The notes under the pieces: generated by a model | The model's input: only the letters and a program-made list of their open reading frames with translations | Databases searched by the model: none | What the model was told of the DNA's origin: nothing | Shown: piece by piece, positions 13,585-61,420 of the stretch | Numbering within the stretch: the first letter of the stretch is position 1 | Layout of the letters: each line of letters begins with the position of its first letter | DNA from: Candidatus Nanoarchaeia archaeon | GTDB taxonomy: Archaea; Nanobdellota; Nanobdellia; SCGC-AAA011-G17; DATDVL01 | Assembly (NCBI GenBank): GCA_035289925.1 | Contig: DATDVR010000002.1 | Coordinates: forward strand, 10,590 to 74,589 | Reading direction: 5' to 3' | Length of the DNA stretch: 64,000 bases | Program-made: the position numbers and the translations under genes

Positions 13585-13632
13585 GATTAAAGGTTCAATA
13601 ACCTTATAAATAGTTTAAAGGACATTTTAAAA

Positions 13633-14814: not shown

Positions 14815-14815
14815 A

Positions 14816-15925: not shown

Positions 15926-15973
15926 ATTGATGATTAGCAACATTTTTAAAGATGCTATTTTTAAGTTCTTGTA

Positions 15974-17988: not shown

Positions 17989-18076
17989 AATAAATTTTAC
18001 AAAAAAACTGTTTTTAAGCTTTGCTAATTGAAGATACATTCATAAGATTTAAAAAAGGGCCTTAGTTATTACTACT

Positions 18077-18808: not shown

Positions 18809-18843
18809 AAAGCTTTAAAAACACGATATAAAGGAGAAATATT

Positions 18844-19599: not shown

Positions 19600-19624
19600 T
19601 AAGATTATCTACTAGGTAAATAAC

Positions 19625-26712: not shown

Positions 26713-27848
26713 GCAACTACTTGCTTTTGAGCATTTAACTCAGAATATTCTTTCTGATTCATCTTTATCTTTGCAGCCTTTGTAACAAGTTCAGGAATAT
26801 ACTGAGGATTAGAAATTACATTTATAGACCATGCGCATTCATAGCTGCATCTACAATCAGTATCCTTGATAAATTTCTTGACATCTTTAGTTTCCTGATT
26901 TTTCCATAATTTCATGAAGTCCATATCATATTGCCTCAAATTTCCTAATTTTTTCTTATAAAGTATTTCACAGGGATAAACATCACCATTTGCATAGACA
27001 ACTCCAAACAAAGCTCCTGCAGGGCAATGTGATGTGTAATCATTTGTTAAGTAAGTTTTTCCTAGTATATTATTTATTATCATGTTCTTGGCGCTCATCA
27101 ATGTTCCTTGTATCGTTGTACCCCATCCAAGAGTTATTCCATTCATCTGGTCTTCATGTATTTTCTTTGTTAATTTTATATATTCTCTCAAGATTCCTTT
27201 CTTTATCTCAGGATCAATTCTTTTAATTACTCCTTCTTCCCTCATTATTATTGCTGTAAAAGATTTAACGCAAATAGTCTTAAGATATTCGTACAATTCC
27301 ACAACCTTCAAATAATTATGGTCAGTTACAGTTAGTGCAACATTGCATATTATATTTGGTTTGTTGTATTCCATTATCATTTTATAAGTGTTCATAGCGT
27401 GGAAGTACAAGTTTTCAGATCTTCTATTTTCATTGTGTTCTTTTTCAAAATTGTCTATAGAAATTGAGAAAAATAACTTGCCTTTTATTCCAGAAGCGAT
27501 GAATTTGTCTATGAAATTCTTGGTTAATTTTGTGAATCTTCCGTTTGTTGTTATAAAAACAGATTCTATTGGAGTGTTTGTAAAGTAAGCTTTAACAATT
27601 TCAAATATGTCGTTTCTCAAGAAAGGTTCTCCGCCAGTCAAGTTGACATTTACCAATCCTTTTCCTAGATTTTTGGTGAATTTTTCAATTTCTTGTATTG
27701 ATAATTCTCCTGCAAAAGCATCTGGAGCGTCAAAGTCAATAAAGCAGTGCTTGCATCTTGCATTGCACCTATTAGTAATAAAATGCACCAAGCTCAAAGG
27801 CTGTGATTTGGTTACATAAGAATTTACAGCTACTCTCAATGGATTCAT
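26709..27848 (-). CDS. Radical SAM enzyme with C-terminal SPASM-type auxiliary cluster domain
   Basis: HFITNRCNARCKHCF (Cx3Cx2C). C-terminal CPAGALFGVVYANGDVYPCE and CRCSYEC cysteine clusters. Confidence 0.8.
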   Translation of the reverse strand: MNPLRVAVNSYVTKSQPLSLVHFITNRCNARCKHCFIDFDAPDAFAGELSIQEIEKFTKNLGKGLVNVNLTGGEPFLRNDIFEIVKAYFTNTPIESVFITTNGRFTKLTKNFIDKFIASGIKGKLFFSISIDNFEKEHNENRRSENLYFHAMNTYKMIMEYNKPNIICNVALTVTDHNYLKVVELYEYLKTICVKSFTAIIMREEGVIKRIDPEIKKGILREYIKLTKKIHEDQMNGITLGWGTTIQGTLMSAKNMIINNILGKTYLTNDYTSHCPAGALFGVVYANGDVYPCEILYKKKLGNLRQYDMDFMKLWKNQETKDVKKFIKDTDCRCSYECAWSINVISNPQYIPELVTKAAKIKMNQKEYSELNAQKQVVA

Positions 27849-38342: not shown

Positions 38343-39047
38343 ATGGAATCGCACGAAATAAAGAAGATGTACGAACTAGAGGAGTTCCATTACTGGTTCA
38401 AAGCCAAAAGGGAAATGATTATTGATTTATTTAAAAAATACTGCAAGCCTGGCTTGGTTTTGGATGTCGGCTGTGGCACAGGGGCAATCTCAAAGGCATT
38501 AAAGAAGTTCACAAAAGTCATCAGCTGTGATTTTTCAGATGATTCTGTAAAGTATTCAAGGATAAGAAATCCTGACATTGAAGTTGTAAGGGGGGATGCA
38601 CAAGCTTTAGGATTCAAGTCAAACAGGTTTGATGCATTAGTTTCCTCAGATTTAGTTGAGCATGTCAAAGACGACAACAAGGCAATAAAAGAATTTAACA
38701 GAGTTTTAAAAAAAAATGGCAGATTAATTCTAACAGTGCCAGCTTTCCAGTTTTTATGGAGCAAGGATGATGTCTCATTAGGCCATCACAGAAGATATAC
38801 AAGGAATCAAATAAAGAATTTATTGGAAAGAAATAATTTTAAGATTGAATTCTTGAATTACTGGAACTTCAGCTTGTTTCCAGCTTATCTCGCATATAAA
38901 TTCGTAAACAAGTCAAGCTCGGCAACAAAAGTCCCAGAGATTCTTAACAAATTGCTTCACTTAGGCTTCAGGTTTGATTCAAAATTGATACAATTGATAA
39001 AAGTCCCTTGGGGAACTTCAGTAGTGGCAGTCGCAACAAAAAAATGA
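38343..39047 (+). CDS. Class I SAM-dependent methyltransferase
   Basis: VLDVGCGTGAIS (motif I), FDALVSSDLVEHV, LKKNGRLILTVP. Confidence 0.8.
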   Translation: MESHEIKKMYELEEFHYWFKAKREMIIDLFKKYCKPGLVLDVGCGTGAISKALKKFTKVISCDFSDDSVKYSRIRNPDIEVVRGDAQALGFKSNRFDALVSSDLVEHVKDDNKAIKEFNRVLKKNGRLILTVPAFQFLWSKDDVSLGHHRRYTRNQIKNLLERNNFKIEFLNYWNFSLFPAYLAYKFVNKSSSATKVPEILNKLLHLGFRFDSKLIQLIKVPWGTSVVAVATKK

Positions 39048-40564
39048 AAAGCTTTTTCACAGAAAAGAGAATATTGATTTACATCTTCCTTTTTGCACTT
39101 GTTTTAAGGTTGTTAATGCTTAATTTGCATTCAGTAATTGAGACAGATGGCACTTACTATGTTCGCATGGCAGATAATCTTTTCTCAGGCAAAGGCTTAG
39201 TTGACATTGAAAACCAGTTCCAGACTTCCTTGACTCCATTTTATCCTGTAATGATAGGTTTATTTAACTTAATTATAAACAATGGAGAACTATCAGCAAG
39301 GTTAGTTTCAATTTTATTCGGAGCTTTACTGATTTTCCCAGTCTATTTCATAGCAAGAAGATTGTTCAGCAAGAAAACAGCATTGATAACAGCCTTGGTA
39401 ATGTCAGTTTATCCTGCCTTGGCTTATGTTTCAACAATAACATACACAGATTCATTATTTTTATTCCTGTTATTCACTTCAATCCTAATTTTGATTAAAT
39501 TTTTAGAAAAAGAGTCAATCTACAATGCTTTGTTTCTAGGTTTTATGCTAAGCCTGTGCTATTTGACAAGGCCAGAAGGCTTCACTTATCTTCTTATAGC
39601 AATATTCTTGACATTTATCATAAAATTCAAGAACTTTAAAGAGATTCTTCCAAAAGTTTTGGCAATAGTCTTGGTTTTCTTTCTAGTTGCTTCACCTTAT
39701 TTGGCATTTTTGAAAGAGCAGACAGGCTCATTCTCATTGTCAAGCAAAGGATATGTAATTTACAAGTTCAGGGAATTCAAACCTTACACTTTGGAGTATG
39801 AAAAAAACATTTTCTCCTTGAATAACGACAAGACAGATGTCAGATTAAATCCTTACACTGTAAAAGGAAGTCTAGTTTCAGAAATCTTTTCAGACTTTTA
39901 CACATTTATCTCAAGATACACCTACAATTTGATTACTGAGCTGGTTAAGTCTCTTCCAGCACTATTCCCATTGTTTCCTTTGTCAATTTTAGGCTTCATG
40001 AACAGGAAAAAAAGAAAGATAAACTTGGCTTTGCTTCTTTTAGCAGGCTACACAATATTGTTTTTCCCAATTTTCTGGGTTGAATCTAGATATTTACTTC
40101 CAATCTTGCCAATCCTGATAATGTGGGCGGCAGAAAGCACTTCAATTCTAGAAATTATAGTCAACAAAAAAATATTGATAGCAGGTTTTTCATTTTTAAT
40201 GTTATTTTTATTGGTTTCAAACGCATTTGCCAATCATCTTATTGATAAAAGATTTGAAAAGCTAGATCCACCAATTGAACACAAGCAAGCAGGTTTAATG
40301 TTGAAGGAACTTTACAAAAATCCTATTGTAATGTCAAGAAAGCCTTACATTTCTTTTTATTCTAATGGTTATTATGTTAACTTACCATACGCTTCTTTAA
40401 AAGACACTTTAAATTTTGCATGCTACAAAGATGTGCAATTCCTGGTTGCAGATTCGAGATATTATTCTTTAAGACCAGAATTGATGAAAGAATTGAAAAA
40501 TTCTAACTTGGAAAAAGTATATAACAAGGAAGATATTATAATCTATAAGTTAAATTGTAGGTAA
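39044..40564 (+). CDS. GT-C fold membrane glycosyltransferase, ArnT/PMT-like (2 of 3)
   Basis: ETDGTYYVRMADNLFSGKG...TPFYPVMIG first-loop motif and more than 10 TM helices. Start set to MKSFF (ATGA overlap with the previous stop) rather than 39008. Confidence 0.7.
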   Translation: MKSFFTEKRILIYIFLFALVLRLLMLNLHSVIETDGTYYVRMADNLFSGKGLVDIENQFQTSLTPFYPVMIGLFNLIINNGELSARLVSILFGALLIFPVYFIARRLFSKKTALITALVMSVYPALAYVSTITYTDSLFLFLLFTSILILIKFLEKESIYNALFLGFMLSLCYLTRPEGFTYLLIAIFLTFIIKFKNFKEILPKVLAIVLVFFLVASPYLAFLKEQTGSFSLSSKGYVIYKFREFKPYTLEYEKNIFSLNNDKTDVRLNPYTVKGSLVSEIFSDFYTFISRYTYNLITELVKSLPALFPLFPLSILGFMNRKKRKINLALLLLAGYTILFFPIFWVESRYLLPILPILIMWAAESTSILEIIVNKKILIAGFSFLMLFLLVSNAFANHLIDKRFEKLDPPIEHKQAGLMLKELYKNPIVMSRKPYISFYSNGYYVNLPYASLKDTLNFACYKDVQFLVADSRYYSLRPELMKELKNSNLEKVYNKEDIIIYKLNCR

Positions 40565-41574: not shown

Positions 41575-43137
41575 ATGAGATTTATTATGGGTTCTATAGA
41601 GCACAGAAAGAATAGAATTTTAGAATTTTTGAAACACAAGAAGATAATAATATTAATTTTAATTCTTCTTTTAGCATTTTTTATAAGATTAAGGTACAAC
41701 AGCGTAAACACAGCACAGTGGTGGGACTCAGCAGACTACATGATGGGTGCCAAGGAGATAGCTGGAACTGACTTAGCCACATACGAATTCAATCCCAGAA
41801 GACCATTTTTCCTTTCATTGTTGTGGGGAGTAATCTTATGGCTAGGCGGAAATGATTCAGCATTAACATTTTCAGTTTTGATATTGTCTTTAATCACGGT
41901 TTTCTACACTTACCTGATTGGTAAAGAATTATTTAATGATGAAGTAGGATTAATAGCAGCATTTTTGCTGGGAGTTTTCTGGGAGCATTTGTTTTTTACA
42001 GCAAGATTGCTTACAGATATCCCTTCAGCTGCATTTTTGATAATGGGATTCTATCATTTCATAAAAGGTCCTTTGAATGACGGAGCTAGAAAGCATTCAA
42101 TCTTGTCAGGAATCTTCTTAGGATTGGCTTGGTTCACAAGGTCAGCTTCTTTGGTGATGTTGATTCCTCTTTTCATAATGATTTTCATGAAAAAAAAGTT
42201 TTCAATATTGAAGGACAAGAATTCATGGATAACTTTAGGCATGATATTTGTAGTGATGCTTCCATTCTTCATATTTTTAATTTCTTCAAGCAGCGATGCA
42301 TTGAAAGCCTACACAGGTGTCGGAGCTGGAAGGTTTGAAGGTGGTGGCATAACAGGTTTATGGGAAAATCTTAAATTAATTATGAGAACTTTAACACCAT
42401 TTTACTACTGGATATTTTACATTGGATTATTTTTCATAGCAGACTGCTTTTTAGGATTGGATCTTATAGGAAAAAACAAGGACAAAGATCTTGCAAATAA
42501 ACTATATTTATTTTTATGGACAATAGCTCCTTGGATTTTCTTTGGTTTGACATTTAATAGAGCATTAGAAGACCGTTATTTCATGGCAATCTACCCAACA
42601 ATGCTTATCATAGCAGCTTACGGCTTGTTCAGGATAAAAAACTACATTGAAAAATTCAACAAGTGGGCTGCAATAGGATTCATAGTAATTTTATTGGTAA
42701 TTGTTTCATATCCTCAAGTCACTATGGCAGATGATGTAATAAATTCCAGGTCTCAAGGTTTCGCAGAAGTTGCAATCGGAGGCTACTGGATAAAAGAAAA
42801 CTCAAATCAAAATGATAATGTAATCTCAGCTTCAACATTGCAGAATATGTATTACTCTGAAAGAAATACCTATCCATTTGCAGAAAATAGTTCAACACGA
42901 AATGATCCAAATGCTTTCCTTCCTTATTTAGAAAAAATAAATCCAAGATATGTCGTGATTTCAGTATACGAGCAAGGCTTTACTCCTCAATGGGCTTACA
43001 CCTTCGGCAATGACCATCCAGAATTACTTACCCCAGTTCAAGGCTATGCAAATCCGCAGCAGCAACCAATCTTGGTAATCTACAAGTACAATAACTTTAA
43101 AGAATCTACTTCACTAGTGGTAAGGCCTTCTTCATAA
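41575..43137 (+). CDS. GT-C fold membrane glycosyltransferase, ArnT/PMT-like (3 of 3)
   Basis: WWDSADYMMGAKEIAG...NPRRPFFLSLLWG first-loop motif, about 12 TM helices and a C-terminal soluble domain. Confidence 0.7.
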   Translation: MRFIMGSIEHRKNRILEFLKHKKIIILILILLLAFFIRLRYNSVNTAQWWDSADYMMGAKEIAGTDLATYEFNPRRPFFLSLLWGVILWLGGNDSALTFSVLILSLITVFYTYLIGKELFNDEVGLIAAFLLGVFWEHLFFTARLLTDIPSAAFLIMGFYHFIKGPLNDGARKHSILSGIFLGLAWFTRSASLVMLIPLFIMIFMKKKFSILKDKNSWITLGMIFVVMLPFFIFLISSSSDALKAYTGVGAGRFEGGGITGLWENLKLIMRTLTPFYYWIFYIGLFFIADCFLGLDLIGKNKDKDLANKLYLFLWTIAPWIFFGLTFNRALEDRYFMAIYPTMLIIAAYGLFRIKNYIEKFNKWAAIGFIVILLVIVSYPQVTMADDVINSRSQGFAEVAIGGYWIKENSNQNDNVISASTLQNMYYSERNTYPFAENSSTRNDPNAFLPYLEKINPRYVVISVYEQGFTPQWAYTFGNDHPELLTPVQGYANPQQQPILVIYKYNNFKESTSLVVRPSS

Positions 43138-44146
43138 GGTCAACAACATGAATTTCTTTCTTTCCTTTTAGCCCTTTTACCATGTAGAATGTCTTTTGCT
43201 GCTTAGGATCCCAGCCATGCTGCGCCTTCTGCTCTTTCCCGAAGAAGTTTGGATAGAATACAGTGCCTTTATTTGCTAAAAATATTAAGTCACATTCTTT
43301 TGGAAGTTTATATTCCTTAAAATCCACAATCTTTCCAGCTTTTATTCCTTTCAATAAGTCTTCGACTTTGGCTTCTGCAAAAGAGTTCTTGAACCAGAAT
43401 CTTATAAATGTAGAGCCAATGAAATAAATAAAATCTTTTCCATAAGTCAAGTTTAAATCAATTAATTCTTTCTCTAAATCATATCTCTTTTCAATCATGT
43501 CCATTGAATGGTCTGAGAAAAAAAGCATTTTTTTAGTATCTAATTCCTGGCACGCTTCATCTATTCTCCTTACTGCATCTTTAGTTACATTGGAATATAT
43601 TCCATGCTCATGCCCTATGTCATCTAATTCCAAGAAATGAATCCAGTTAAAGTCAGCTTTCAATGTTTTAGCCTTTCTTAGTGTAGCTTCAGTGCTTTTC
43701 TGCACAAATAAGCTTGCTTTCCTGTTGTTGAATATGAAGGGCCAGTCTAAAAATGTAAAACTTTTATTTTTCTTCTCCAAAGTGTCAAATATTGTTGGAA
43801 CTTTCAATGAATTCTTCTGAGGCCATATCTTTTTCAGGCTTGGCTCAAAGTATTTTGCAGCTTCGTGCTGTAATGGGCTGTACAAAAAAAGATTTTTAGT
43901 CATCAATCTTGCTAGGCTTGCAATATATTTATTCTTAATATGAAATCCAGGCTTTTTTCTTAATGTGAAAGTATCAATTACTCCATGCTTCTCAGGATAA
44001 AATCCAGAAACAAGGCTTGCAATTATGCTTGTATATCCAAAAGTCACTTCCAAATTTCCATGCAGATTTTCCTTGCTTAATTCTTTTAAATAAGAAGTCC
44101 ATTTTAAGTATCTAGGATTGAAAGCGTCAATAAAAATGCAGTTCAT
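43106..44146 (-). CDS. Alkaline-phosphatase-superfamily enzyme (type I phosphodiesterase / nucleotide pyrophosphatase-like)
   Basis: FIDAFNP (metal Asp), FGYTSIIASLVSGFYPEKHGV (nucleophile region), ELDDIGHEHG, FFSDHSM. No TM helix. Confidence 0.7.
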   Translation of the reverse strand: MNCIFIDAFNPRYLKWTSYLKELSKENLHGNLEVTFGYTSIIASLVSGFYPEKHGVIDTFTLRKKPGFHIKNKYIASLARLMTKNLFLYSPLQHEAAKYFEPSLKKIWPQKNSLKVPTIFDTLEKKNKSFTFLDWPFIFNNRKASLFVQKSTEATLRKAKTLKADFNWIHFLELDDIGHEHGIYSNVTKDAVRRIDEACQELDTKKMLFFSDHSMDMIEKRYDLEKELIDLNLTYGKDFIYFIGSTFIRFWFKNSFAEAKVEDLLKGIKAGKIVDFKEYKLPKECDLIFLANKGTVFYPNFFGKEQKAQHGWDPKQQKTFYMVKGLKGKKEIHVVDLMKKALPLVK

Positions 44147-45330
44147 AGCAACCTCTGCGTGTAGTAGTTTCCATAAGCGTATAGAGCTGCCTTTCTTAAT
44201 CCTTCAAAGTCGTCTTTCTTTATTGGAGCCATGTTCCATAAGTATCTCTTTGCTTCCTTCAATAAAGATCTGTCTTCAATTCCATACAATAAAAGCAGGC
44301 ATGGCATCATCATCCTGTATCCTATGTCTCTCCAGTCAAACAATACAGGCAGATGTCCAGTTTTCCTGAAATATAACAAGTTTAGTAAATATTGAGAAGG
44401 GAAAGTTATATTTCCTAATGGGATGTAAGGCACATGGTACTTGAATGCCATTTTTCTATTCAGTTTTGACAATAATTCTTTCAAGCTTGAAGCTGTTATT
44501 CCAAAATCTTTCTCAGCCATGTATTTTAAAGTGAATTTTAAAAAATTTCTTGCTTCTTTCCAAAGTTTTATTGGATTCTTTATCTTGTCTGGCCTGAAAT
44601 CTTGTTTAAAATTAGTTGCCCAGTTTAATTTTTTAGCTATCTCAGGCATTTCTTTTCCGTAAAGCTTTTTAAATAATTTGTTTCTTCCACCATAAGTTCC
44701 AGAGTATTGTTTTTTAAGCAGCAACATTGCAGCAGAGCAGTCAATAAACGTTTTCAGGCAATAGTAAATAGCAATCAATCTTTCATCCTTGTTGAAATGG
44801 TTTGAAAATCTTCTAGAATCCATTGCTAATAATAATAAGGCAGACTTGTTTATCAAATATCTCCATCCTTCAGATGTTGGAAGCTCTTTTTCATTAATTT
44901 TTATTAAATGTCTCGTGTCTTTTCCATACAAAAGCTGAGTTGCATATTTTATTTCAAAAGTTCTTGTAGTTTTTCTTAAAGATTTTAGATTTTTTAATGT
45001 GATTGCTCTCAAATCAACATGAAAAAACTTCTTCCTGTCGTAATTTGTTCCATCTGTTTCTATGAATTCACCTCCGCCCATTCCTATCGCATTTGAAGCT
45101 TTCCTTCCAACTCTATCAAGCTCAGAATCTTTCACCTTGTCCTTTGTTATTATGTACATGTCAAAGTCGTTGAAGACTTCTTTTCCATTCAAGACAGTTC
45201 CTTCTCCTTTTCCGAAGCTTCCAAAAAGTAAAACAGATACAGGTTTCAATTCATCAGCTATTATTTTTGTAACTATCTTAAGCTTCTTCTCAACCTGCTT
45301 GTTCATTTTAGGATTTTTTACAAACTTCAT
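44143..45330 (-). CDS. Protein with N-terminal Pol-beta-type nucleotidyltransferase domain
   Basis: VLLFGSFGKGEGT...FNDFDMYII (GS...DxD). The remaining roughly 280 aa are helical and unassigned. Confidence 0.55.
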   Translation of the reverse strand: MKFVKNPKMNKQVEKKLKIVTKIIADELKPVSVLLFGSFGKGEGTVLNGKEVFNDFDMYIITKDKVKDSELDRVGRKASNAIGMGGGEFIETDGTNYDRKKFFHVDLRAITLKNLKSLRKTTRTFEIKYATQLLYGKDTRHLIKINEKELPTSEGWRYLINKSALLLLAMDSRRFSNHFNKDERLIAIYYCLKTFIDCSAAMLLLKKQYSGTYGGRNKLFKKLYGKEMPEIAKKLNWATNFKQDFRPDKIKNPIKLWKEARNFLKFTLKYMAEKDFGITASSLKELLSKLNRKMAFKYHVPYIPLGNITFPSQYLLNLLYFRKTGHLPVLFDWRDIGYRMMMPCLLLLYGIEDRSLLKEAKRYLWNMAPIKKDDFEGLRKAALYAYGNYYTQRLL

Positions 45331-46256
45331 AGGTATTCCTCGTCCCTGAAAGCTAGAAATGCTCCAAACAATATTACGGCTAAGGAAATTATTAATCCAG
45401 CTAAAGACATTGCAACTACAGTCTTAGGCACTACGTAATATTTATCAAATAAAGCTATCATGGCTATTTCTCTTGTTCCTAGCCCGCTTATTGTTACAGG
45501 AATCAATCCTATCATCGTGACTATTGACATTATTGGCACAAAATAATACAAAGGCACAACAATGTTAAGGGAAAGCGCAACCAGATATAACTGCATGTAG
45601 ATTGTGACCCAGGTTATCACAGTGAGTATGAAGGGAACTAGCAGATGCTTTGGATGTATAGTTGCTTCATAAAATCCCTGAAACAATTCCTTAGCTTTAT
45701 CTTTAAATCTTGCAGGGACTAAAAAATTAAAAACAAACCTCAATACTTTGGCAGTCATCTCCTTGTTTGAAAATATATAGATTACAAAGAATGCAAATAT
45801 CAAGACTGTTGTAATTTCCAGTAAAACATTTGAATAATCCTTTATTACTAAAAAAGCCCCTAACAATGACAACAAAGTTACCACAAACAAGTCCAAAAAT
45901 CTCTCCATCAGCACAGAGGGCAAGCAAGTCCCGTAGTTTCTTCCTATTTTTTTATGCAGATAATGAACTTTAATGAAAGAGCCTAGTTTTCCAGGAGTTA
46001 TTGTTCCGTAAAACAGGCTTATGAACTGTACTTTTATTGCATATATGAAAGGAATATGATAATTCTGTCCTTTTACAATCATGTGCCACTTGTATGCCTG
46101 CAGTAAAACTGTGAAAAAGCTTATCACCAATGCAAATAACAAGTAAGAAACCTTTGCTGCTGATAAGGTTACTAAAATTTCCTTGATTCCTACCTTAGTT
46201 ATTACTAAAATAAAGATAAAAATTCCAATTAAAGGCAATATTTTTGTTATCTTCAT
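45327..46256 (-). CDS. Polytopic membrane protein, lysyl-PG-synthase-TM / UPF0104 (flippase-like) family candidate
   Basis: 309 aa with about 8 TM helices. The arrangement is typical of UPF0104 proteins next to glycosyltransferases. The call rests on topology and weak motif memory. Confidence 0.5.
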   Translation of the reverse strand: MKITKILPLIGIFIFILVITKVGIKEILVTLSAAKVSYLLFALVISFFTVLLQAYKWHMIVKGQNYHIPFIYAIKVQFISLFYGTITPGKLGSFIKVHYLHKKIGRNYGTCLPSVLMERFLDLFVVTLLSLLGAFLVIKDYSNVLLEITTVLIFAFFVIYIFSNKEMTAKVLRFVFNFLVPARFKDKAKELFQGFYEATIHPKHLLVPFILTVITWVTIYMQLYLVALSLNIVVPLYYFVPIMSIVTMIGLIPVTISGLGTREIAMIALFDKYYVVPKTVVAMSLAGLIISLAVILFGAFLAFRDEEYL

Positions 46257-46264: not shown

Positions 46265-48319
46265 CTAATCTGTTGTTTTTAATTCAGTTACAGGTCTAGA
46301 GAAGTCCTTTAAGTGACCGAAAACAGCCTTGGCTCCTTTTACTGTGTATAAAAAGTCCTGCCAGCTTCTTATCTGTGATAATTTTCTAGCTACATATCTT
46401 GGATCTATGAAAATATGATAAATTTTGTTGCACATTGTCTGTATTTCTTCTGGCGTCATGTCCGGACTTTTGAATACAGGCTCTGCCATGTCGTAAGCTT
46501 CATAGTTGAAAGGATCAAAGTCATCTCTGAACCAGTTGTTTTTTATTGCATCTCTGTTCAATGGAGTTCCTGGATAAGGAATTACTGTAGTTGATTGTAA
46601 AACATCTGCATATCCTTTAATCATTAGTCTTTTAGCTAGTCTGTAAGTCTTCATTGCATCTTCTTTTGTTTCCCAAGGATATCCTACCATGATTGTTAAA
46701 TGAACTGTCAATCCAGCTTCTTTTGCATACTTGCAAGAAGGTTCTACTTCTTCTATTTTAGTTCCCTTGTCTAGTCTGTTTATTGTTTCTTGATTTCCAG
46801 ATTCTAGTCCGAATTTTAATAATCTAAATCCTGCTTCCTTCATTAATTTGTATTCTTCTAAGCTTACCGCTCCAAATCTCATATTGCATGAATATAAAAC
46901 TTTTTTATTGTAGCCAGACTCAATCATTAAATTGCAGAATTTCTTTAGCCAAAGACCTACAGTTATTGTACCGCAGTCATCAAAAATTTCCTTTACTCCA
47001 ATCTCATCTACTAAATATTTTACTTCTTCCATTACATTTTCAGGTGATCTTGCTCTGAAAGTTCCTTTTGGATACAACGTATGATCCCAGACGCAGTTTG
47101 AAACAGACATTAAATTTGCATTGTAAGAATGCTCATTTTCAACAGATATATTATAGACTTCCCCAACATATTCTTCTTTCTTGATTTCTTTTATAGGGAA
47201 TAATATTCTGTTGTCTTGTATCTTTATTTTATTGCTTAAATCAGCTTCTATAAGACTTTGAATTTCTTGAGTTCCATCTTCAGTTACTAAAATAAATTGT
47301 TTGTTTAAAGTCTCAGAAACATTGTTTAAAGAGATGCCTTCTATTGTTGCAGAAGTTAAAAAATCTCCTTCAGTTAATTCACTGGCTTCAATAAACTCTG
47401 GCTTAGATTCTCCATTTTTAATTGCAAAAAACTTATGATTTGGTGTGCATTTAGTAATTTCCTTAATTCCATCTGCTTTAATATTTATTAATTCTCCAGA
47501 ATAGCTTCTTCTAAAAATAAAGTTGTTTTTTTCGTATTTTCCATTATGTGTTAATACTTCTTCTCCTAATTTTAAATCTTTAATCTTTACAATTCCATTT
47601 TTAGTTGTTATTTTAGTATCTGGATGGAAGCAGAATGTACAGCGTCCCCACCAGCAGTCTCTTCCTGACATGATGTAAGCTAAAGGTCTTCCTGCTAAAT
47701 TGAATTCTTTTTGATACCATTCATTGTGTGTAAATACTCTGTCAATAATTGGAGCATCATCTAATGGTCTTGCTAAGTTGTATCTTCCATTTTCTACTAT
47801 TTTTCCATCTTTCCTGTACCATATCCCCTTAGGAATTTCAGTCTTGTTTTCCAAAGCCTCTGCTAAATCAACAGTTGCAAAGTCATGGTATCCACCGCAG
47901 ATTAAAAAATCAATTGGAGAATTTTCCATTGACTCTTTTGGCAATGCAGTTGGATGGTCTCCGCATAAAGCTAGTTTTAATTTTGGGAATTTTTCCTTTA
48001 AAACTTTTGCAATTGCCCAGTGTTTTTTAATAGTTGGAGTTTTAGTATCAAAAATAAACAAATCTGGCTGTTCTTTTTCTAAAAACTTAAAAAAATTTTC
48101 TTCAGATACGCCTTCTGCAATGCAGTCTTTCCAGTAAGTTTTGTATCCTAACTGTTTAAGCCATGTTGCTGCAGTGCCCATAGCTACTGGAAATAAGAAA
48201 GTTGGATTGTTAAAATACTGAAATTGCCTGTTTTGTGATAGTAAAGGTATTCCTCTGGCGGAAAATGTTGGAGGATATCCAACTACAATTTTAAGCTTCT
48301 TTTTAGCCATAGTAATCAA
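46265..48319 (-). CDS. Cobalamin-binding-domain radical SAM enzyme interrupted by a mini-intein
   Basis: N-terminal B12-binding-like domain. Cluster motif DCWWGRCTF|C. Residues 230-408 are a Hint domain. The C-extein resumes CVWDHTLYPKGTFRARSPENVMEEVKYLV (typical radical SAM continuation). Confidence 0.85.
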   Translation of the reverse strand: MITMAKKKLKIVVGYPPTFSARGIPLLSQNRQFQYFNNPTFLFPVAMGTAATWLKQLGYKTYWKDCIAEGVSEENFFKFLEKEQPDLFIFDTKTPTIKKHWAIAKVLKEKFPKLKLALCGDHPTALPKESMENSPIDFLICGGYHDFATVDLAEALENKTEIPKGIWYRKDGKIVENGRYNLARPLDDAPIIDRVFTHNEWYQKEFNLAGRPLAYIMSGRDCWWGRCTFCFHPDTKITTKNGIVKIKDLKLGEEVLTHNGKYEKNNFIFRRSYSGELINIKADGIKEITKCTPNHKFFAIKNGESKPEFIEASELTEGDFLTSATIEGISLNNVSETLNKQFILVTEDGTQEIQSLIEADLSNKIKIQDNRILFPIKEIKKEEYVGEVYNISVENEHSYNANLMSVSNCVWDHTLYPKGTFRARSPENVMEEVKYLVDEIGVKEIFDDCGTITVGLWLKKFCNLMIESGYNKKVLYSCNMRFGAVSLEEYKLMKEAGFRLLKFGLESGNQETINRLDKGTKIEEVEPSCKYAKEAGLTVHLTIMVGYPWETKEDAMKTYRLAKRLMIKGYADVLQSTTVIPYPGTPLNRDAIKNNWFRDDFDPFNYEAYDMAEPVFKSPDMTPEEIQTMCNKIYHIFIDPRYVARKLSQIRSWQDFLYTVKGAKAVFGHLKDFSRPVTELKTTD
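47096..47632 (-). mobile_element. Mini-intein (179 aa, no homing-endonuclease domain)
   Basis: Block A CFHPDTKITT, block B TKCTPNHKF (TxxH), blocks F/G VYNISVENEHSYNANLMSVSN followed by +1 Cys. The DNA codons were checked: TGC at 47630-47632, AAC at 47096-47098, +1 TGC at 47093-47095. Confidence 0.8.
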
Positions 48320-48443: not shown

Positions 48444-48872
48444 TTAAGCCACAAATTTACTTTCTCTAGCCATGTCAGGATACTTCTGATAAACGTATCT
48501 TAACAACTCTGTAGCATTGAAATCAATAAATTTCTTGCACATTTCACCTATTTTTTGTTTTTCTTTTATGTTTTCTTTTGAAAAAAATATTTTTGCAGTT
48601 TCATTCTTACCAGATTCCGTAAGAGAATATTGATAATAATCATGATTCGATTTCCCAGGAAGTAGCTTTTCTTCTATCAAACCAGCACTAACAAATTCGT
48701 TTAAAGTGTCATTTAATTCTGAAGAAAATGGACCATATAAATAAGCTTGATACTTAAAAGTCTCGACTATTTCTTTATTAATCAAAAACATCAATTTTTG
48801 AAGAAAAGTTCTTCCAAAAACATTCCCCATTTCATAAAAAACAACTAACAATGCCTCTTTTTTATTAATCAT
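48444..48872 (-). CDS. Panacea/SocA-like (DUF4065) domain protein
   Basis: GRTFLQKLMFLINKE...YLYGPFSSELNDTL matches the kLqKLlY....GP.s pattern. The C-terminal DYYQYSLTESGKNE looks like a winged-helix wing. Confidence 0.55.
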   Translation of the reverse strand: MINKKEALLVVFYEMGNVFGRTFLQKLMFLINKEIVETFKYQAYLYGPFSSELNDTLNEFVSAGLIEEKLLPGKSNHDYYQYSLTESGKNETAKIFFSKENIKEKQKIGEMCKKFIDFNATELLRYVYQKYPDMARESKFVA

Positions 48873-49567
48873 TTTTTTACCTCCTTTTTCATAAAATCAT
48901 AAATCACCTTATCCATAGTCAAACTACCAAAGAAACTTTGTTTTCCTTTTTTATCAGCTCTCTTAGATATTAAAACAACACCATATTTTTCTTTCTTTTT
49001 ATTCTCTATTAAGATTACATTCAACTTACCTTCCATTAAAGTCAAACCACTACTAAATTGAAATTTTTCGATTTTTTTCTTAAATTCCAAGGACTGCACT
49101 TCTTTGTCAAGATAAACTAAGAGTTCATATCCTTTTTGGACTAATTCGTTAAGCGTTGTTATTAACAATCCTTCACTTTTTAAAATCATAGATTCATTAG
49201 CAGGATCCTCTTTGTCAAAATCTGGAATTTCCTTTGATTGTTCAAGCAAAGATATCTCCTTTTCTATTTGATCCCAATCTTCTTTTAATTCTAATAATAA
49301 GTGCCTTGGATGTATTGCTTTATAACTTTTCACGTTTGAACTAGTATCTTCAAATATAACTCTTTTAGATTCTAAATTATTTAATATTTGATAAGGCCTT
49401 GAAACTGAGTTACCCAATCCGTTTTTCTCCAAGATATCTCCTATATCAGTAGCTTTCACATTTCCTTTTTGTATTATTCTTAGTAAAACCAAGGTTTCAT
49501 CTTTACTTAAATTATGTAAATTCTGTAAAGCTGAAGCTGTTTTCTCAAAACCATTAAGTGTACCCAT
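48869..49567 (-). CDS. TrmB-like winged-helix transcriptional regulator
   Basis: N-terminal LSKDETLVLLRIIQKGNVKATDIGDILE...RPYQILNNLESKRVIFE. 4-nt overlap with the downstream Panacea gene. Confidence 0.55.
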   Translation of the reverse strand: MGTLNGFEKTASALQNLHNLSKDETLVLLRIIQKGNVKATDIGDILEKNGLGNSVSRPYQILNNLESKRVIFEDTSSNVKSYKAIHPRHLLLELKEDWDQIEKEISLLEQSKEIPDFDKEDPANESMILKSEGLLITTLNELVQKGYELLVYLDKEVQSLEFKKKIEKFQFSSGLTLMEGKLNVILIENKKKEKYGVVLISKRADKKGKQSFFGSLTMDKVIYDFMKKEVKK

Positions 49568-50698: not shown

Positions 50699-51190
50699 TT
50701 AAATCTTTAATAAATTAAAGTTATTTATATATTCAGAATAATCAACCATCACATCCCTATCTTCCCAAGCCTTATTTTTTTGAATTTTAAAATAATAATC
50801 AAACCTATTTTTTCTATCCTTTTTATTTTTTGACTTATCTAACAATATATCAGAAGGTATAATCAACATTCTAGGGGTCATCATTTTCTTATATTCCTTG
50901 TCTTCAGCAGTATAAATTAAAAATATATAAAAATCTGCAACTTTATTCAAAACTTTATCTTTACTTACACTAAACCAGCCATTAGCTTGTCCTAAATTAT
51001 ATTCCCTACTTTCTTTAACTTGTATCTTTACAACTTTCTTAGTCTTTTGATTCATTAAAACCAGATCATAATCTTTTAATTGATTGTTTAATGGTATAAA
51101 TATTTCATAAGATTTACCAAGTGCCTTTTTTATATAATCCGAAGCTATAATTTCTCCAACTTGTAAAGACCAAATATTTTTTAGAGTCAT
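50699..51190 (-). CDS. Hypothetical protein with PD-(D/E)XK-like motif
   Basis: GEIIASDYIKK...DYDLVLMNQKTKKVVKIQVKESR (E...D...QxK). Start set to MTLKNIW (ATGA overlap with the upstream nuclease gene). Confidence 0.45.
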   Translation of the reverse strand: MTLKNIWSLQVGEIIASDYIKKALGKSYEIFIPLNNQLKDYDLVLMNQKTKKVVKIQVKESREYNLGQANGWFSVSKDKVLNKVADFYIFLIYTAEDKEYKKMMTPRMLIIPSDILLDKSKNKKDRKNRFDYYFKIQKNKAWEDRDVMVDYSEYINNFNLLKI

Positions 51191-51903
51191 TTTTCTTTCC
51201 ACTCACAAAACTTACATTCTTTACTAGCCTTAGGCATCTTTCCATTTAATACCTTTATAGCCTTCTTAAACAAGTTTTCAGCATGCTTAACATTAATATT
51301 CATCTTTACTAGTTCAGTCTTGAAAACAAATTCTCCTGACTTTAAAACATTTTCAGGAACATAAAACAATAGATAAGCATAATCCTCAGTTTCATAACCA
51401 TTTTTTCTTAGTAAAAAATTATAGATATTTAACTGATCTTGGTAATGATGTGCAGTATCTTCTTTTACTGGAAATCCTCTGGTTTTATAGTCTAAAACAA
51501 CTAATTTCTTTCCTTTTATTAATATATTATCTACTGCTCCTCTTAACAAAATTCCAGAATTTTTATCTTCATATTGAATACCTTTAAAGTTGTTTCTCCA
51601 AATACTTAATAATTCCTTGTTGTTAAAAAGTTTATAATCATGTTTTTTGTGATAGATTAATTCTAGAGGTAACTTGTCTTTTTCCATGAAAGAATCAAAA
51701 TGTTGTTTTAATATTTTATCAACACCAGAAGGTAAACTGGGAAAAGGGCCTGAAGGCCTTGATATTTTATTTACTAATTGTAAATAAAAGCATCTAGGAC
51801 AATCCTCTAAAAGATTTAAAGATGATGGTGATAGTTTATACATAGTTTTATTAAAATTTTGTATATTTATATAGTTTCGGAAATCTTTCGGTAAATAAGA
51901 CAA
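51187..51903 (-). CDS. PD-(D/E)XK nuclease, Cas4/RecB-like with four-Cys cluster
   Basis: LSPSSLNLLEDCPRCFYLQ, GAVDNILIKGKKLVVLDYKT (D...DxK), QLNIYNFLL, C-terminal ECKFCEW. Confidence 0.7.
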   Translation of the reverse strand: MSYLPKDFRNYINIQNFNKTMYKLSPSSLNLLEDCPRCFYLQLVNKISRPSGPFPSLPSGVDKILKQHFDSFMEKDKLPLELIYHKKHDYKLFNNKELLSIWRNNFKGIQYEDKNSGILLRGAVDNILIKGKKLVVLDYKTRGFPVKEDTAHHYQDQLNIYNFLLRKNGYETEDYAYLLFYVPENVLKSGEFVFKTELVKMNINVKHAENLFKKAIKVLNGKMPKASKECKFCEWKEK

Positions 51904-51988
51904 ACGGCATACAAAAGTTTATAAATTACGGAAGATTTTCAATAAATACTGCGAAAACTTATTAAATACCTATTGCAGTTATAATCCA

Positions 51989-53374
51989 ATGAATGAAAAC
52001 ACGATTGTATCGCAAAAATTAGATTTTGTGGATGTCGATATGGGTTCCCTTAGCAATAAGGATATTATAAAAAAATTAAATGGACTAAGTAGGCTTCCCG
52101 AAAACTTTAATGAAGCTCCTTTATTAGCTTTGCTTAATAATAAAAATGAAAACATAAGACTATTAGCCGTTAAGAATTTAGCTAAGTTAAAAAGATTTAG
52201 TTTACTAAATACTTATGTAGGGATTATTATATCTGATATAAGTTCCGATGTAAGAAGAGAAGCCGTGTCAGCTATAGGCAGATTAAGAAATGAGCATGCC
52301 AAATCAGTTCTAATTAAATTATTAAAGGATAAAGATCCAGAAATCATTTTACAAGCTATAAGGGGGCTATTAGTTTTTAAGGGCAACATTTCCATAAGGA
52401 AAACTTTACTTAACCTTAAAAAACATCCCAATGAAATCATTCAAGAAGTAATAAAAAAAGAATTTTATAACAATTCCTCAAATAAACCAGATTTAAACCA
52501 TAATTCTTCTCCAGATTTTCTTAAAAATACTGTTATTCATGGAGATGTTAGAACGATACTCAAACAGGTAAAAAATGATTCCGTCCATCTGACTTTTACT
52601 TCACCCCCTTATTATAATGCTAGAGATTACTCCATATATGCAAGTTACAAAGAATATTTGGGATTTCTTGAAGAAGTTTTTAAAGAAGTTTATAGAATTA
52701 CAAAAGAAGGACGTTTTTTCTTATTAAATACCTCGCCGATTATTATCCCTCGCGCCGGTAGACAATATTCGAGTAAGAGATATCCGATCCCTTACGATAT
52801 TCATCCGTTACTGATTAAAATGGGTTGGGAGTTTATCGACGATATTATTTGGTTAAAACCAGAGGCAAGTGCAAAAAATAGAAATGCTGGTTTCTTACAG
52901 CATAGAAAACCATTAGCATATAAACCTAATGCTTGTACTGAATGCGTAATGGTTTATAGGAAAAAAACCGATAAACTAATTGACTGGAATATAAAACAAT
53001 ATTCGAAAGACATAGTAGAAAAAAGTAAGATAAACGGAGATTTTGAATCTTCTAATGTTTGGAACATTGACCCTGTATTTGATAAAACTCATAGTGCGGT
53101 CTTTCCTATAGAATTGTGCAATAAGATCATAAAGTTTTATTCATTTAAAGGGGATTTAGTATTCGATCCTTTTGCAGGAAGCGGAACACTTGGCGTATCT
53201 GCAATAGGGCTTGACAGACATTTCTTTTTAACTGAACTAAACAAAGAGTATTTTGATAGGATTCAAGAGAATATTGCCCAAACTAAAATATTCTCTAAAA
53301 ATTTGATTAAGCCAAGATTTATAAATATCGAGGAGTTCAAGAAGCTATCCCGAAATGACAAAAATATTAAGTAA
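51989..53374 (+). CDS. DNA methyltransferase (beta-class, SPPY motif IV before FxGxG motif I) with N-terminal HEAT-like repeats
   Basis: HLTFTSPPYYNARDY and VFDPFAGSGTLGVSA. N-terminal repeats: NIRLLAVKNLAKL / DVRREAVSAIGRLRN / DPEIILQAIRGL. Confidence 0.8.
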   Translation: MNENTIVSQKLDFVDVDMGSLSNKDIIKKLNGLSRLPENFNEAPLLALLNNKNENIRLLAVKNLAKLKRFSLLNTYVGIIISDISSDVRREAVSAIGRLRNEHAKSVLIKLLKDKDPEIILQAIRGLLVFKGNISIRKTLLNLKKHPNEIIQEVIKKEFYNNSSNKPDLNHNSSPDFLKNTVIHGDVRTILKQVKNDSVHLTFTSPPYYNARDYSIYASYKEYLGFLEEVFKEVYRITKEGRFFLLNTSPIIIPRAGRQYSSKRYPIPYDIHPLLIKMGWEFIDDIIWLKPEASAKNRNAGFLQHRKPLAYKPNACTECVMVYRKKTDKLIDWNIKQYSKDIVEKSKINGDFESSNVWNIDPVFDKTHSAVFPIELCNKIIKFYSFKGDLVFDPFAGSGTLGVSAIGLDRHFFLTELNKEYFDRIQENIAQTKIFSKNLIKPRFINIEEFKKLSRNDKNIK

Positions 53375-58749: not shown

Positions 58750-61383
58750 TTAATTGGGAAGTGTCAATCTGATGTCAGGATACTGCGTTTCCAGATATTC
58801 TGGCTTGAATTTAGTATATCTTGTGTCTGCTTCCCATATCTTTAATGGTCCTATCAATCTTCCTTGGTAGATTGCCAAGGGCATGTTTGAAGAATCTTCA
58901 TAAACTGTCTTGAATCCTGGCAAGTCTTTTCCTAAAAGATACATCTGTCCGAATAATGTCCTGTAAACTCTTGGTGATACAAATATTGCTGCTCCAAAAA
59001 AGTCTCCTTTTGTAGTTGTTGTGAAAGTTGGGATTATCCTCAAGCAGCCAGACATGAAATCTTCTCCGTCAAACCTGTATTCTACATTGTTGAAAAACAC
59101 GCATTGCAATGGTACTAAATGTTGTTTGTCTTGGAATGCAATAACAGCATCAACTCTGTTAAATTTGCCTGTGAAAATTCTTGTGTCTGCTGTCATGTTA
59201 CCAACATGCACTATAAATCCTATCACGCCCGAAGCTCTTCCAGGAAATACGGTTCCTTTATATTTATAAGTTTCATCCAGTGTAACTCCGCCCTGATATA
59301 TTAAAAGAGTTTCATTTTTTGTTGCCTGTGTTTGCTTTGGATCAAGACTAAAAGTCCCTATAGTTGAAAATCTGTCATAGTTCTCGTCGCTACCAATGCT
59401 TGAATATGCCCCATATTTTCCAATTTCATCTGCTACCATGAGCAAATATGTTGCGTTATGCGCCTTCATGAATTCCAAGGCTTCATTCGAATCTTGCGCT
59501 GTAAGTAAATGTCTTCCGCTTAGATAGTTCCAGTAGATGAAGAAGTTTCCTCCGTCAGTTACTGTAGCTCTTTCAAATCCAGACTGCACCCAGTATCCAT
59601 AGTCCCACCAGTGCGCAAAAACTGCATCCTTTGGTGTGTTTTCTCTTGCCCATTTCCCAGCCTGCTGCCATTGCTGGTTGTACCATGGATAAATAGATTT
59701 AGCCTGTTGGTAGCTTGAATCAGCCTGCACCAAAACAATGCCTTTTGAAAAACTGAAAGGGCTTATTAATAAAAATACAAGCAAAAATATAAGTGCATAT
59801 CTTAATATTTTATTGTTCAATGCCTTGAAGTAGTCAAATGCAAACACGACAAAGAAAGCAGCCAATGGAGCAGTCACTAATGAAAACTCAAACATCAATC
59901 TTATTGCCGATGTTGCAGCAATTATCTTTATGAAGAACCAGATGAATACAAAAGAGTAATCTATATTAAGGTTATTTTCAATATCTTTAAACAATTCTCT
60001 GTTCTTGTAGAAGGTTCTTAAATATCCATAGCTCAATGTTCCAAAAAAAAGAAGTATGCTTCCATAGAAAAGGAAATGCGCTATTCCAGTCTCTCCGTTG
60101 AGTTTTGTATTAGGAGAGTATCTTGAAAATACATAACCAAAAATGAACAATGCGTAAATTATTGTTAATTTCCATGAAGCTTTAAGTTTCTTCACAGTAT
60201 TGTAAAATAATGCTATTGAACCAAAGATAAAAAAGTATACATAAAGTTTACCCATCTCGCTCATCCAGTCAACAACAAACGGCTTCCTGTTTTCAGCAAC
60301 AGTTAAGCTCCATCTGCTCTGACCGTAAGCCTCAAAAAGATGATGGTAAACTTCGAAAAACATATCAATGAAGAATTTCGAGCCAAGTATGAAGTAAAGA
60401 ATTACTGTGCTTATCAAAACTGTTACTATCAATGCAATTATTCCTTTAGGCAATGAATTTGAAATCTTCTCACTTAGTTTCACAACCTTAAATTCAAATA
60501 AAATCATGTAAATTGTTGCTAAAGCTAAAGCGGCAAAAGCTGTTAAAGATGGTGCAGCAGATAAGAAAGGTCTTATTCCGTAGTCTGTCAAAAATTGCCA
60601 GTAGATTATGAAAGGCAGTATCCATGCAAGGTATGTATAGTAATCTTGTTTCTTGAACTTGTCAAATAATATTTTTACTATGTTGAACGCTCCAAATATG
60701 AACAGTATGAAATTTGCATTTCCTGCAGTTTCCATAGCAGCTACAGTTATTATTCCTGCAAAAGCTGCTAAAATTATTGACTTCAATAAATTGTCTGTTT
60801 TTGTTGATATGAAATAAAAGTAGAACGCCATTATCATTAGCATTACTGCAAGTATGTCATGATCTGTGCTTCCTGCAGTGCTTCTGAAGATGAAAGTTGG
60901 CAAAATATTGATAAATAAAACGCTCAACAATCCAGTTTTCCAGTCAAATAATTTCCTCATCAATAAAAACATGAATATTGAAAGGGTAATCATAGCAATC
61001 AATGGATAAATTATGTCAACATATTCTACAGTCAATGAAGGATTGAAGACATGTAAGAACTTCCACAGATAAGCTACGAAATAAGATGTAAAGACTCCAA
61101 TCCCAGTTAAGTCAGCTCCAATTGGATAGAATCTCATCTGGTCAACTTTGAACAAAGTTCCATGCTCTGCAATATACTGCGCATATCTTAAGAATAATGT
61201 TGAATCCAGCTCAGCAGTTATATATTTTCCTGTTGTAGAATCTTTCAACGTCCCAATGTTCTGTGTTCTTATGTTGAAACCATACCAGATTATTATTGCT
61301 AATATAAAAAAGACTAGGTAAACTTTATAGTTCTTGATAAAAGATATTAATTTCTCTTTCCTTTTATTCAACACATCATCCAT
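58750..61383 (-). CDS. aglB: Oligosaccharyltransferase AglB (STT3 family), copy 1
   Basis: 13-TM-type N-terminal region plus a C-terminal globular domain with AHWWDYGYWVQ (WWDYG). Confidence 0.9.
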   Translation of the reverse strand: MDDVLNKRKEKLISFIKNYKVYLVFFILAIIIWYGFNIRTQNIGTLKDSTTGKYITAELDSTLFLRYAQYIAEHGTLFKVDQMRFYPIGADLTGIGVFTSYFVAYLWKFLHVFNPSLTVEYVDIIYPLIAMITLSIFMFLLMRKLFDWKTGLLSVLFINILPTFIFRSTAGSTDHDILAVMLMIMAFYFYFISTKTDNLLKSIILAAFAGIITVAAMETAGNANFILFIFGAFNIVKILFDKFKKQDYYTYLAWILPFIIYWQFLTDYGIRPFLSAAPSLTAFAALALATIYMILFEFKVVKLSEKISNSLPKGIIALIVTVLISTVILYFILGSKFFIDMFFEVYHHLFEAYGQSRWSLTVAENRKPFVVDWMSEMGKLYVYFFIFGSIALFYNTVKKLKASWKLTIIYALFIFGYVFSRYSPNTKLNGETGIAHFLFYGSILLFFGTLSYGYLRTFYKNRELFKDIENNLNIDYSFVFIWFFIKIIAATSAIRLMFEFSLVTAPLAAFFVVFAFDYFKALNNKILRYALIFLLVFLLISPFSFSKGIVLVQADSSYQQAKSIYPWYNQQWQQAGKWARENTPKDAVFAHWWDYGYWVQSGFERATVTDGGNFFIYWNYLSGRHLLTAQDSNEALEFMKAHNATYLLMVADEIGKYGAYSSIGSDENYDRFSTIGTFSLDPKQTQATKNETLLIYQGGVTLDETYKYKGTVFPGRASGVIGFIVHVGNMTADTRIFTGKFNRVDAVIAFQDKQHLVPLQCVFFNNVEYRFDGEDFMSGCLRIIPTFTTTTKGDFFGAAIFVSPRVYRTLFGQMYLLGKDLPGFKTVYEDSSNMPLAIYQGRLIGPLKIWEADTRYTKFKPEYLETQYPDIRLTLPN

Positions 61384-61420
61384 TTTTTTCTAAAAAATTC
61401 CCATTAAATATGTTATGAAC

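Follow-up and report, generated by a model that had tools for sequence, protein, structure and literature searches.

What is a segment of 179 residues doing inside the cysteine motif of a radical S-adenosylmethionine (SAM) enzyme, at the point where the motif is predicted to bind a [4Fe-4S] cluster? The question is raised by a B12-type radical SAM gene of a Candidatus Nanoarchaeia archaeon (contig DATDVR010000002.1 of assembly GCA_035289925.1), within a stretch of 64,000 nucleotides that was analyzed as a whole and is referred to here as the window. A preliminary description, made from the letters of the window, had called the segment a mini-intein. We consider it very likely that the segment is a class-1 mini-intein, a selfish element, now without its former endonuclease, that is spliced out immediately before the third Cys of the motif in a B12-type radical SAM enzyme of the DPANN archaea; splicing itself, the dependence of the activity on splicing and a sensitivity to redox state are predictions.

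Identification of the Intein

The segment (coordinates of all features are collected in Table 1) gave a clean translation on the minus strand only, and re-translation confirmed the presence of blocks A, B and F/G, as the preliminary description had it. It is preceded by DCWWGRCTF (longer upstream stretch, SGRDCWWGRCTF) and followed by CVWDHTLYPK. The segment scored above the cut-offs of the Pfam models Intein_splicing (48.6 bits; cut-off 35.8) and Hint_2 (31.4 bits; cut-off 28.4) and of the NCBIfam model intein_Nterm (41.2 bits; cut-off 24.5), and in the full protein the intein_Cterm model also exceeded its threshold (16.2 bits; cut-off 15.6). An AlphaFold2 (AF2) model of the intein, built from 11 homologous inteins, was all-beta with a mean predicted local distance difference test (pLDDT) score of 82.9, residues 99-126 being unstructured. 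When this model was compared with the PDB using Foldseek, the top 50 matches were all HINT domains, with E-values of 5e-8 to ~3e-5 and target-normalised template modelling (TM) scores of up to ~0.8. Among them were a bacterial intein-like (BIL) domain, PhoCDC21-1, gp41-1, Hedgehog, and the Mtu RecA and Ssp DnaB mini-inteins. Chance cannot account for a match to inteins of this strength.

The residues expected of a class-1 intein were found, namely Cys1, the TxxH of block B, and a terminal Asn followed by a +1 Cys (SVSN/C, where the slash marks the splice junction). Two assisting residues that are common in class 1 but not obligatory were absent: the penultimate residue is Ser rather than His, and position 4 of block F (F:4) is Asn rather than Asp. 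Class 3 was ruled out, since Cys1 is present and F:4 is Asn rather than Cys. The penultimate His and positions 4 and 13 of block F are assisting, less conserved positions, and splicing without the penultimate His has been reported (PMC4031507, its references 74 and 87). A Pfam scan matched no endonuclease domain in the window intein; the missing endonuclease and the penultimate Ser had both been noted correctly in the preliminary description. A second intein was not found in the window using a family hidden Markov model and six-frame open reading frames (ORFs).

Table 1. Features of the intein, its host gene and the downstream genes, in positions of the window.
Feature	Coordinates	Strand	Basis or remarks
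B12-type radical SAM gene containing the intein	46265..48319	minus	ORF list; 684 aa from TTG at 48319, stop codon included
N-extein, residues 1-229	47633..48319	minus	Predicted Rossmann-type B12 domain and beginning of radical SAM core
Class-1 mini-intein, 179 aa (precursor residues 230-408, CFHPDT...NANLMSVSN)	47096..47632	minus	Pfam/NCBIfam models, AF2, orthologs
Block A, CFHPDT	47615..47632	minus	Cys1, predicted nucleophile for N-S acyl shift
Cys62 and block B, TPNH	47435..47449 (TPNH 47435-47446)	minus	Thr63 and His66, predicted assisting residues
Disordered variable linker, intein residues 99-126	47255..47338	minus	pLDDT <50; position of LAGLIDADG_3 in longer relatives
Blocks F/G, VYNISVENEHSYNANLMSVSN	47096..47158	minus	F:4, Asn161; position 13, His168; penultimate Ser178; terminal Asn179
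+1 Cys codon	47093..47095	minus	Predicted splice-junction nucleophile and third [4Fe-4S] ligand after splicing
C-extein	46265..47095	minus	Remainder of radical SAM core, C-terminal domain, stop codon
Flippase-like LPG_synthase_TM gene	45327-46256	minus	Pfam/NCBIfam
Gene for 395-aa protein	44143-45330	minus	No family match
Type I phosphodiesterase (alkaline-phosphatase superfamily) gene	43106-44146	minus	Pfam/NCBIfam

Insertion Point and Intein-Free Orthologs

When the joined exteins were used as query, thousands of relatives were found, and the 120 best (55-96% identical) were analyzed. These are metagenomic proteins of Nanoarchaeota, Pacearchaeota and Woesearchaeota, most of them 480-550 aa in length. 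More than 100 intein-free orthologs, for example P0002 (86% identical), read ...SGRDCWWG[RK]CTFCVWDH... without interruption. Since this sequence is the predicted ligation product, the insertion is placed exactly between Phe229 and the third Cys. Splicing would thereby restore CWWGRCTFC with the +1 Cys as the third motif Cys, which bears out what had been proposed. At the DNA level, occupied sites and the empty site in an intein-free locus (L004) shared conserved sequence over the 30 nt on either side of the insert.

The CX4CX2C spacing of the motif was observed in 119 of the 120 orthologs, with or without an intein, and Cys222, Cys227 and Cys230 (spliced numbering) were invariant in an alignment of 121 exteins (121/121). 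With a gap of one residue, the host motif aligned to the CX3CX2C of the MgmA/QCMT structure 9CCB and to that of a second radical SAM gene in the window (19625-21223; CPEHCTFC). A different cysteine triad as cluster ligands was rejected on the basis of this alignment and of the conservation of the three residues, which make any other triad unlikely. The preliminary description had contrasted the spacing of the host with that of gene 19625-21223, which it took for an intein-free paralog. Both spacings were given correctly, but a link to the intein does not hold in view of the orthologs; likewise, gene 19625-21223 belongs to the same superfamily but is only 26% identical and a distant member of it. 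The same description had proposed that the segment be checked with Hint and intein models, against intein-free orthologs and for an alternative cluster triad. The Pfam and NCBIfam thresholds were passed, the insertion point was confirmed and the segment, being absent from more than 100 orthologs, is not a conserved domain, and no other triad was supported. Taken as a whole, these sequence comparisons identify the 179-aa segment as an intein that interrupts the CX4CX2C [4Fe-4S] motif just before its third Cys.

The Host Enzyme

The true start of the host gene is probably the ATG at 48310 (MAKKK) rather than the TTG at 48319, because the 98%-identical protein P0001 begins there. Cys222 and Cys227, the first two cysteines of the cluster motif, lie in CWWGRCTF (47633-47656) at the end of the N-extein, Cys227 being at position -3 to the intein. 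Against Pfam, the host protein scored 60.3 bits with Radical_SAM, above the threshold of 29.5, and 22.5 bits with B12-binding, under the cut-off of 32.1; many orthologs have a precomputed PF02310 match. The best NCBIfam match of the precursor was to HpnJ (175 bits), in two separate stretches, whereas the spliced sequence gave a single continuous match to this model over residues 82-473 (187.5 bits). This score is far under the cut-off of 577.6, and an identity of the host with HpnJ was rejected.

An AF2 model of the intein-free ortholog P0002 had a pLDDT of 89.3, and its top Foldseek matches were MgmA/QCMT (9CCB), AprD4, OxsB, TsrM, CysS and TokK. The entry 9CCB, a solved B12-dependent enzyme, is MgmA/QCMT (PMC12931638). 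As modeled, the ortholog shows the cobalamin-dependent (class B) radical SAM architecture, although the B12-binding match of the window protein is under its cut-off.

Intein-Bearing Relatives and Loss of the Endonuclease

Intein-bearing orthologs were counted as ortholog clusters among the listed relatives of the joined-extein search and of a search with the full precursor. At least 19 clusters carry an intein at the same site, 11 of them mini-inteins and 8 full-length inteins, and ~100 intein-free clusters occur in the same lists. The full-precursor search contributed the eight, which are orthologs of 926-986 aa (P0273-P0279 and P0127) with an insert of ~435 aa at CTF/C that contains Pfam LAGLIDADG_3. 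A homolog search with the intein alone returned just three unrelated proteins with inosine monophosphate dehydrogenase (IMPDH) inteins, owing to a word-index limit, and was replaced by profile and full-precursor searches. Homology to the window intein is clear in the N- and C-terminal splicing regions of the ~435-aa inteins (for example, ILFPIKEIKKEEYYGDVYNISVENEHSYTANLVGVAN versus ILFPIKEIKKEEYVGEVYNISVENEHSYNANLMSVSN), and in the alignment LAGLIDADG_3 falls exactly where the window intein has its disordered linker. Because sister copies hold an endonuclease at the linker position, the window intein is derived from a homing intein by loss of the endonuclease, and the linker (residues 99-126) is what the LAGLIDADG endonuclease left behind as a scar.

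Cys-3, Cys1, the Thr and His of block B, the terminal Asn and the +1 Cys were present in all 19 intein-bearing orthologs. The extein Cys-3 and the intein Cys1 form a CxxC pair (C-T-F-C1) in every one, and a Cys just before block B was observed in 16 of them. In the alignment of the 11 mini-inteins, Cys1, Phe2 and Pro4 were invariant. The penultimate residue was Ser in 15 of the 19 orthologs and Ala in the remaining 4, endonuclease-bearing copies included, and F:4 was Asn throughout (19/19). Since endonuclease-bearing copies share these states, we regard them as ancestral traits of the lineage and not as signs of decay; the penultimate Ser, which the preliminary description had pointed out, is therefore not particular to this copy, Ser or Ala being fixed in the group.

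The reading frame was intact at all loci. Pairwise ratios of non-synonymous to synonymous substitution rates (dN/dS) were 0.08-0.27 for the intein and 0.04-0.13 for the exteins, values that are rough because dS is near saturation. The low ratios and the conserved catalytic set argue for an active intein. In 10 of 11 loci (window, L001, L005-L013) the G+C content of the intein was below that of the host gene, tracking the overall composition of each host; in the window it was 27.2%, compared to 35.0% in the rest of the gene, with 17% versus 27% at third codon positions. A low G+C content that nevertheless follows host composition fits a long residence under weaker constraint. Intein and extein identities correlated moderately (r = 0.58), and the occurrence of the intein was patchy, as it was missing from P0002 (86% identical) and present in P0001 (98% identical). 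Such a distribution is usual for a selfish element that is gained and lost.

Inteins at the Same Position in Other Radical SAM Families

A search of 1.84 billion representative proteins with a profile built from the 11 mini-inteins gave 14,181 matches with E-values up to 0.001, which represent inteins in general. The best 150 of these were screened for C..C.. directly upstream of the intein start. Three of them (P0130, P0200 and P0243) are other B12-type radical SAM enzymes with a canonical CX3CX2C motif, and a fourth (P0267) is a radical SAM enzyme of the AmmeMemoRadiSam system (282.8 bits; cut-off 220); in all four the intein lies directly before the third Cys. A further case, from Nitrososphaerales (L019:1411-1560; GCSWACSY/C), was found in a scan of a genome collection. 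The inteins of P0130, P0200, P0243 and P0267 are 48%, 43%, 33% and 29% identical to the window intein, respectively. The P0130 extein, by comparison, is 28% identical to that of the window, and P0267, whose intein matches with E = 1e-27, has an extein without detectable similarity. From this greater similarity of the inteins than of the hosts, it follows that the lineage has moved from one radical SAM family to another, landing each time at the same position of the motif. When the C-termini of the four were checked, P0200, P0243 and P0267 were without the penultimate His and P0130 possessed it.

One curated radical SAM family of NCBIfam has an internal intein as its defining feature (NF038136, intein-containing Rv2578c family radical SAM protein). 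Junction peptides of the window protein, P0130, P0243 and P0200 aligned across the extein/intein boundary of this model, in which the Cys motif occupies positions 66-75 and the intein Cys1 position 76; this alignment indicates the same insertion point. A second curated family with an intein, tetraether lipid synthase Tes (NF045703), has an insertion point that is not placeable from model coordinates, as the peptides mapped inconsistently. The preliminary description had named no described intein at this site, a view that must be revised in view of the NF038136 junction alignment, the published MoaA intein discussed below, and related inteins that occupy the same position in four or more further radical SAM families. 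Literature searches on inteins in combination with radical SAM enzymes, tetraether synthase, DPANN or iron-sulfur insertion sites turned up no account of this intein family. Together, the compared sequences are evidence for the third radical SAM Cys as a repeatedly used landing site of inteins.

Inteins were also seen elsewhere. P0151, P0227 and P0250 are NuoI-type subunits for two [4Fe-4S] clusters with two inteins inside one CxxCxxCxxxCP motif, one before its first Cys and one before its third (…DYGR/C…HN/CVFCGL/C…HN/CVDACP). The profile search also recovered P0124, a protein of 2602 aa with seven separate matches to the intein N-terminal splicing domain and hence a host laden with inteins. 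The closest inteins outside radical SAM hosts follow …ITATPTL/ in Thermococci (L014-L018) and …VATPTL/ in a Nitrososphaeria archaeon (L020), in hosts which we take to be helicase-like. The Thermococci matches had been candidates for MoaA or Tes and were dropped, their N-exteins (…ITATPTL/C) being of a different kind. Other inteins follow …PAH/ in DPANN, Altarchaeum and candidate phyla radiation (CPR) genomes (L021-L024, L037).

Genomic Neighborhood

The radical SAM gene heads a conserved, co-oriented unit of four genes, the other three of which lie downstream at 43106..46256 on the minus strand (Table 1). This order was shared by intein-containing (L001-L003) and intein-free (L004) loci. The 395-aa protein had no family match and a PDB sequence search gave no usable match; by eye, its N-terminus (LFGSFGKGEG…DFDMY) resembles a nucleotidyltransferase motif. 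Judging from the gene neighborhood, the host enzyme probably acts on a head group linked to a lipid or glycan.

The window as a whole is an island devoted to cell-surface glycans and lipids, rich in glycosyltransferase, AglB and phosphonate genes. A phosphonate-type cluster at 11959-21223 (plus strand) includes a phosphoenolpyruvate (PEP) mutase-NTP-transferase fusion, a thiamine pyrophosphate (TPP)-dependent decarboxylase-like gene, an Fe-alcohol dehydrogenase, a Polysacc_synt flippase, two CDP-alcohol phosphatidyltransferases and the B12-type radical SAM gene 19625-21223, which is nearest to the Sden_1168-family P-methyltransferases (204 bits, under the cut-off of 575). Two tandem AglB/STT3-like oligosaccharyltransferase genes are found at 58750-63970 (minus strand), and three further genes (22156-23547, 39008-40564 and 41575-43137) encode PMT_2 (GT-C) membrane glycosyltransferases. 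A third radical SAM gene (26709-27848, minus strand; Radical_SAM and SPASM), without an intein, lies among glycosyltransferases. Directly upstream of the intein-bearing gene, 48444-49567 (minus strand) encodes a SocA/Panacea-domain protein and a weak TrmB-like regulator; farther away, 51187-53374 encodes a nuclease of the PD-(D/E)XK type and a fusion of an N6/N4 DNA methylase with HEAT repeats.

Proposed Splicing Mechanism and Alternative Explanations

We propose that splicing would start with an N-S acyl shift at Phe229-Cys1, helped by Thr63 and His66 of block B. The N-extein would then pass to the +1 Cys, cyclization of Asn179 would free the intein, and an S-N shift would give ...CWWGRCTF-CVWDH.... 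Only the spliced protein would have the three cluster ligands side by side. In the precursor, 179 residues separate the third ligand from the first two, and the neighboring ligand position is taken by Cys1 of the intein, so that activity should need splicing; as the third ligand is also the +1 nucleophile, cluster binding by the enzyme would have to await the removal of the intein. The dependence of radical SAM activity on splicing can thus be soundly inferred from the positions of these residues. The intein itself would be a selfish mobile element, and would persist because the target DNA site is invariant and well conserved and because nothing short of precise excision from the protein leaves the enzyme intact. 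As Cys-3, Cys1 and Cys+1, together with Cys-8, are brought together in the precursor, splicing is probably sensitive to oxidation or thiophilic metals, and this sensitivity would be a by-product, as in the Pyrococcus abyssi MoaA intein; from the CxxC arrangement and the MoaA precedent, a response to redox state or metals is plausible.

Several points weigh against this proposal. Splicing of the window intein, as of all members of the group, is predicted from sequence only, and with Asn at F:4 instead of Asp and Ser instead of the penultimate His it could be slow or conditional. The dN/dS values are rough, as noted above. Moreover, endonuclease-less copies under purifying selection in several lineages would also fit a co-opted regulatory role, one that a selfish element can do without.

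Such a role would make the intein a switch, in which a Cys-3/Cys1 or Cys1/Cys+1 disulfide, or a metal, limits splicing to reducing or anoxic conditions or to conditions in which clusters are supplied. The selection on endonuclease-less copies is joined here by the CxxC pair of all 19 orthologs, by the additional Cys before block B in 16 of them, and by the published precedent of P. abyssi MoaA, a radical SAM enzyme in which a Cys-3/Cys1 disulfide controls the splicing of the intein. However, the cysteines are imposed by the host motif and hence uninformative on selection for sensing. Most orthologs, one of them 86% identical, do without the intein, which argues that the pathway does not need such regulation, and endonuclease-bearing relatives and jumps between host families point to a mobile parasite. 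Co-option as a switch is thus unlikely in our view. A broader version is slightly more doubtful: a single intein lineage would be specialized on the third Cys of CX3-4CX2C and hop between radical SAM families, with relatives on ferredoxin-type cysteines such as those of NuoI, while its endonuclease-less copies would be kept as oxygen-, thiol- or iron-sulfur-gated maturation switches in which four clustered precursor cysteines sense redox state or metal.

It is very improbable that the segment is a decayed HINT remnant that no longer splices, in a pseudogene or in a precursor that works unspliced by means of other cysteines. The missing penultimate His and block F Asp could be taken as decay, and the exteins do have other conserved cysteines (Cys283 in 121/121; Cys299, Cys350 and Cys451 each in at least 110/121). 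Yet it is Cys222, Cys227 and Cys230 that match the canonical cluster triad in alignments; no intein-bearing ortholog departs from Cys1, the Thr and His of block B, the terminal Asn or the +1 Cys; and copies with an endonuclease show the same fixed Ser/Ala and Asn states. Intact frames, dN/dS well under 1 and the reported splicing of inteins without the penultimate His (PMC4031507, references 74 and 87) also speak against decay. We give almost no credence to a HINT domain of the BIL or Hedgehog type that cleaves without ligating, or to a conserved accessory domain: a Clostridium thermocellum BIL domain was the top Foldseek match and Hedgehog HINT domains also ranked high, but Foldseek does not separate HINT subfamilies, the terminal Asn and Cys+1 are intein-specific, the Intein_splicing and intein N- and C-terminal models were all above their cut-offs, the segment is missing from most orthologs with perfectly continuous flanks, and sister copies carry a homing endonuclease.

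A selfish, endonuclease-free class-1 intein accordingly remains the explanation that we favor. It would illustrate how inteins exploit invariant catalytic residues, the +1 splice nucleophile here doubling as a [4Fe-4S] ligand. On the practical side, such proteins are scored too low by gene callers and family models, as the match of HpnJ to the precursor in two pieces illustrates, and a small intein without an endonuclease and with a Ser-Asn/Cys junction could serve as a scaffold for protein engineering.

Comparison with Known Systems

In HpnJ and other class B enzymes a B12 Rossmann domain precedes the radical SAM core, and the same order is predicted for the host enzyme. A further likeness is the pairing of its gene with a flippase-like LPG_synthase_TM gene; hpn clusters contain a membrane protein, HpnL, that is similar to the latter. 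The host differs from HpnJ in its CX4CX2C spacing and in its occurrence in an archaeon without hopanoids. The hosts of the other inteins at this position (P0130, P0200, P0243, P0267 and L019) have CX3CX2C spacing and are not orthologous to the window host, and P0200 keeps its endonuclease. The curated families NF038136 and NF045703 likewise differ in host family, and the window protein scores far under their cut-offs and is not a member of either.

Among efficient class-1 inteins, Ssp DnaE does without a penultimate His and, like the window intein, has Ser or Ala before the terminal Asn and Cys at +1. Npu DnaE ends in ...ASN/C. The DnaE inteins are split and have Asp at F:4, whereas the window intein is contiguous with Asn at this position.

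The closest parallel to the proposed redox sensitivity is the P. abyssi MoaA intein, in which, according to two reviews, a native Cys-3/Cys1 disulfide blocks splicing under oxidizing conditions and reduction releases active, oxygen-labile MoaA (PMC3922620; PMC10663303, citing Callahan et al., 2011). A splicing-blocking disulfide of this type is known for MoaA only, the site of which may lie either in the N-terminal CX3CX2C or in a second cluster motif. Like the window intein, the MoaA intein has the extein Cys-3 and Cys1 as a CxxC pair, and its host is oxygen-labile in the account of PMC10663303; the hosts differ, one being a Thermococcales MoaA and the other a B12-type radical SAM enzyme of DPANN. 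Radical SAM and NuoI inteins would form a natural panel for redox- or metal-dependent gates of maturation of the kind proposed for MoaA. The window intein reveals no new mechanism in comparison with these systems; what it adds to an already known phenomenon is a new host family and a new group of organisms, the DPANN archaea of the Woesearchaeota/Nanoarchaeota type.

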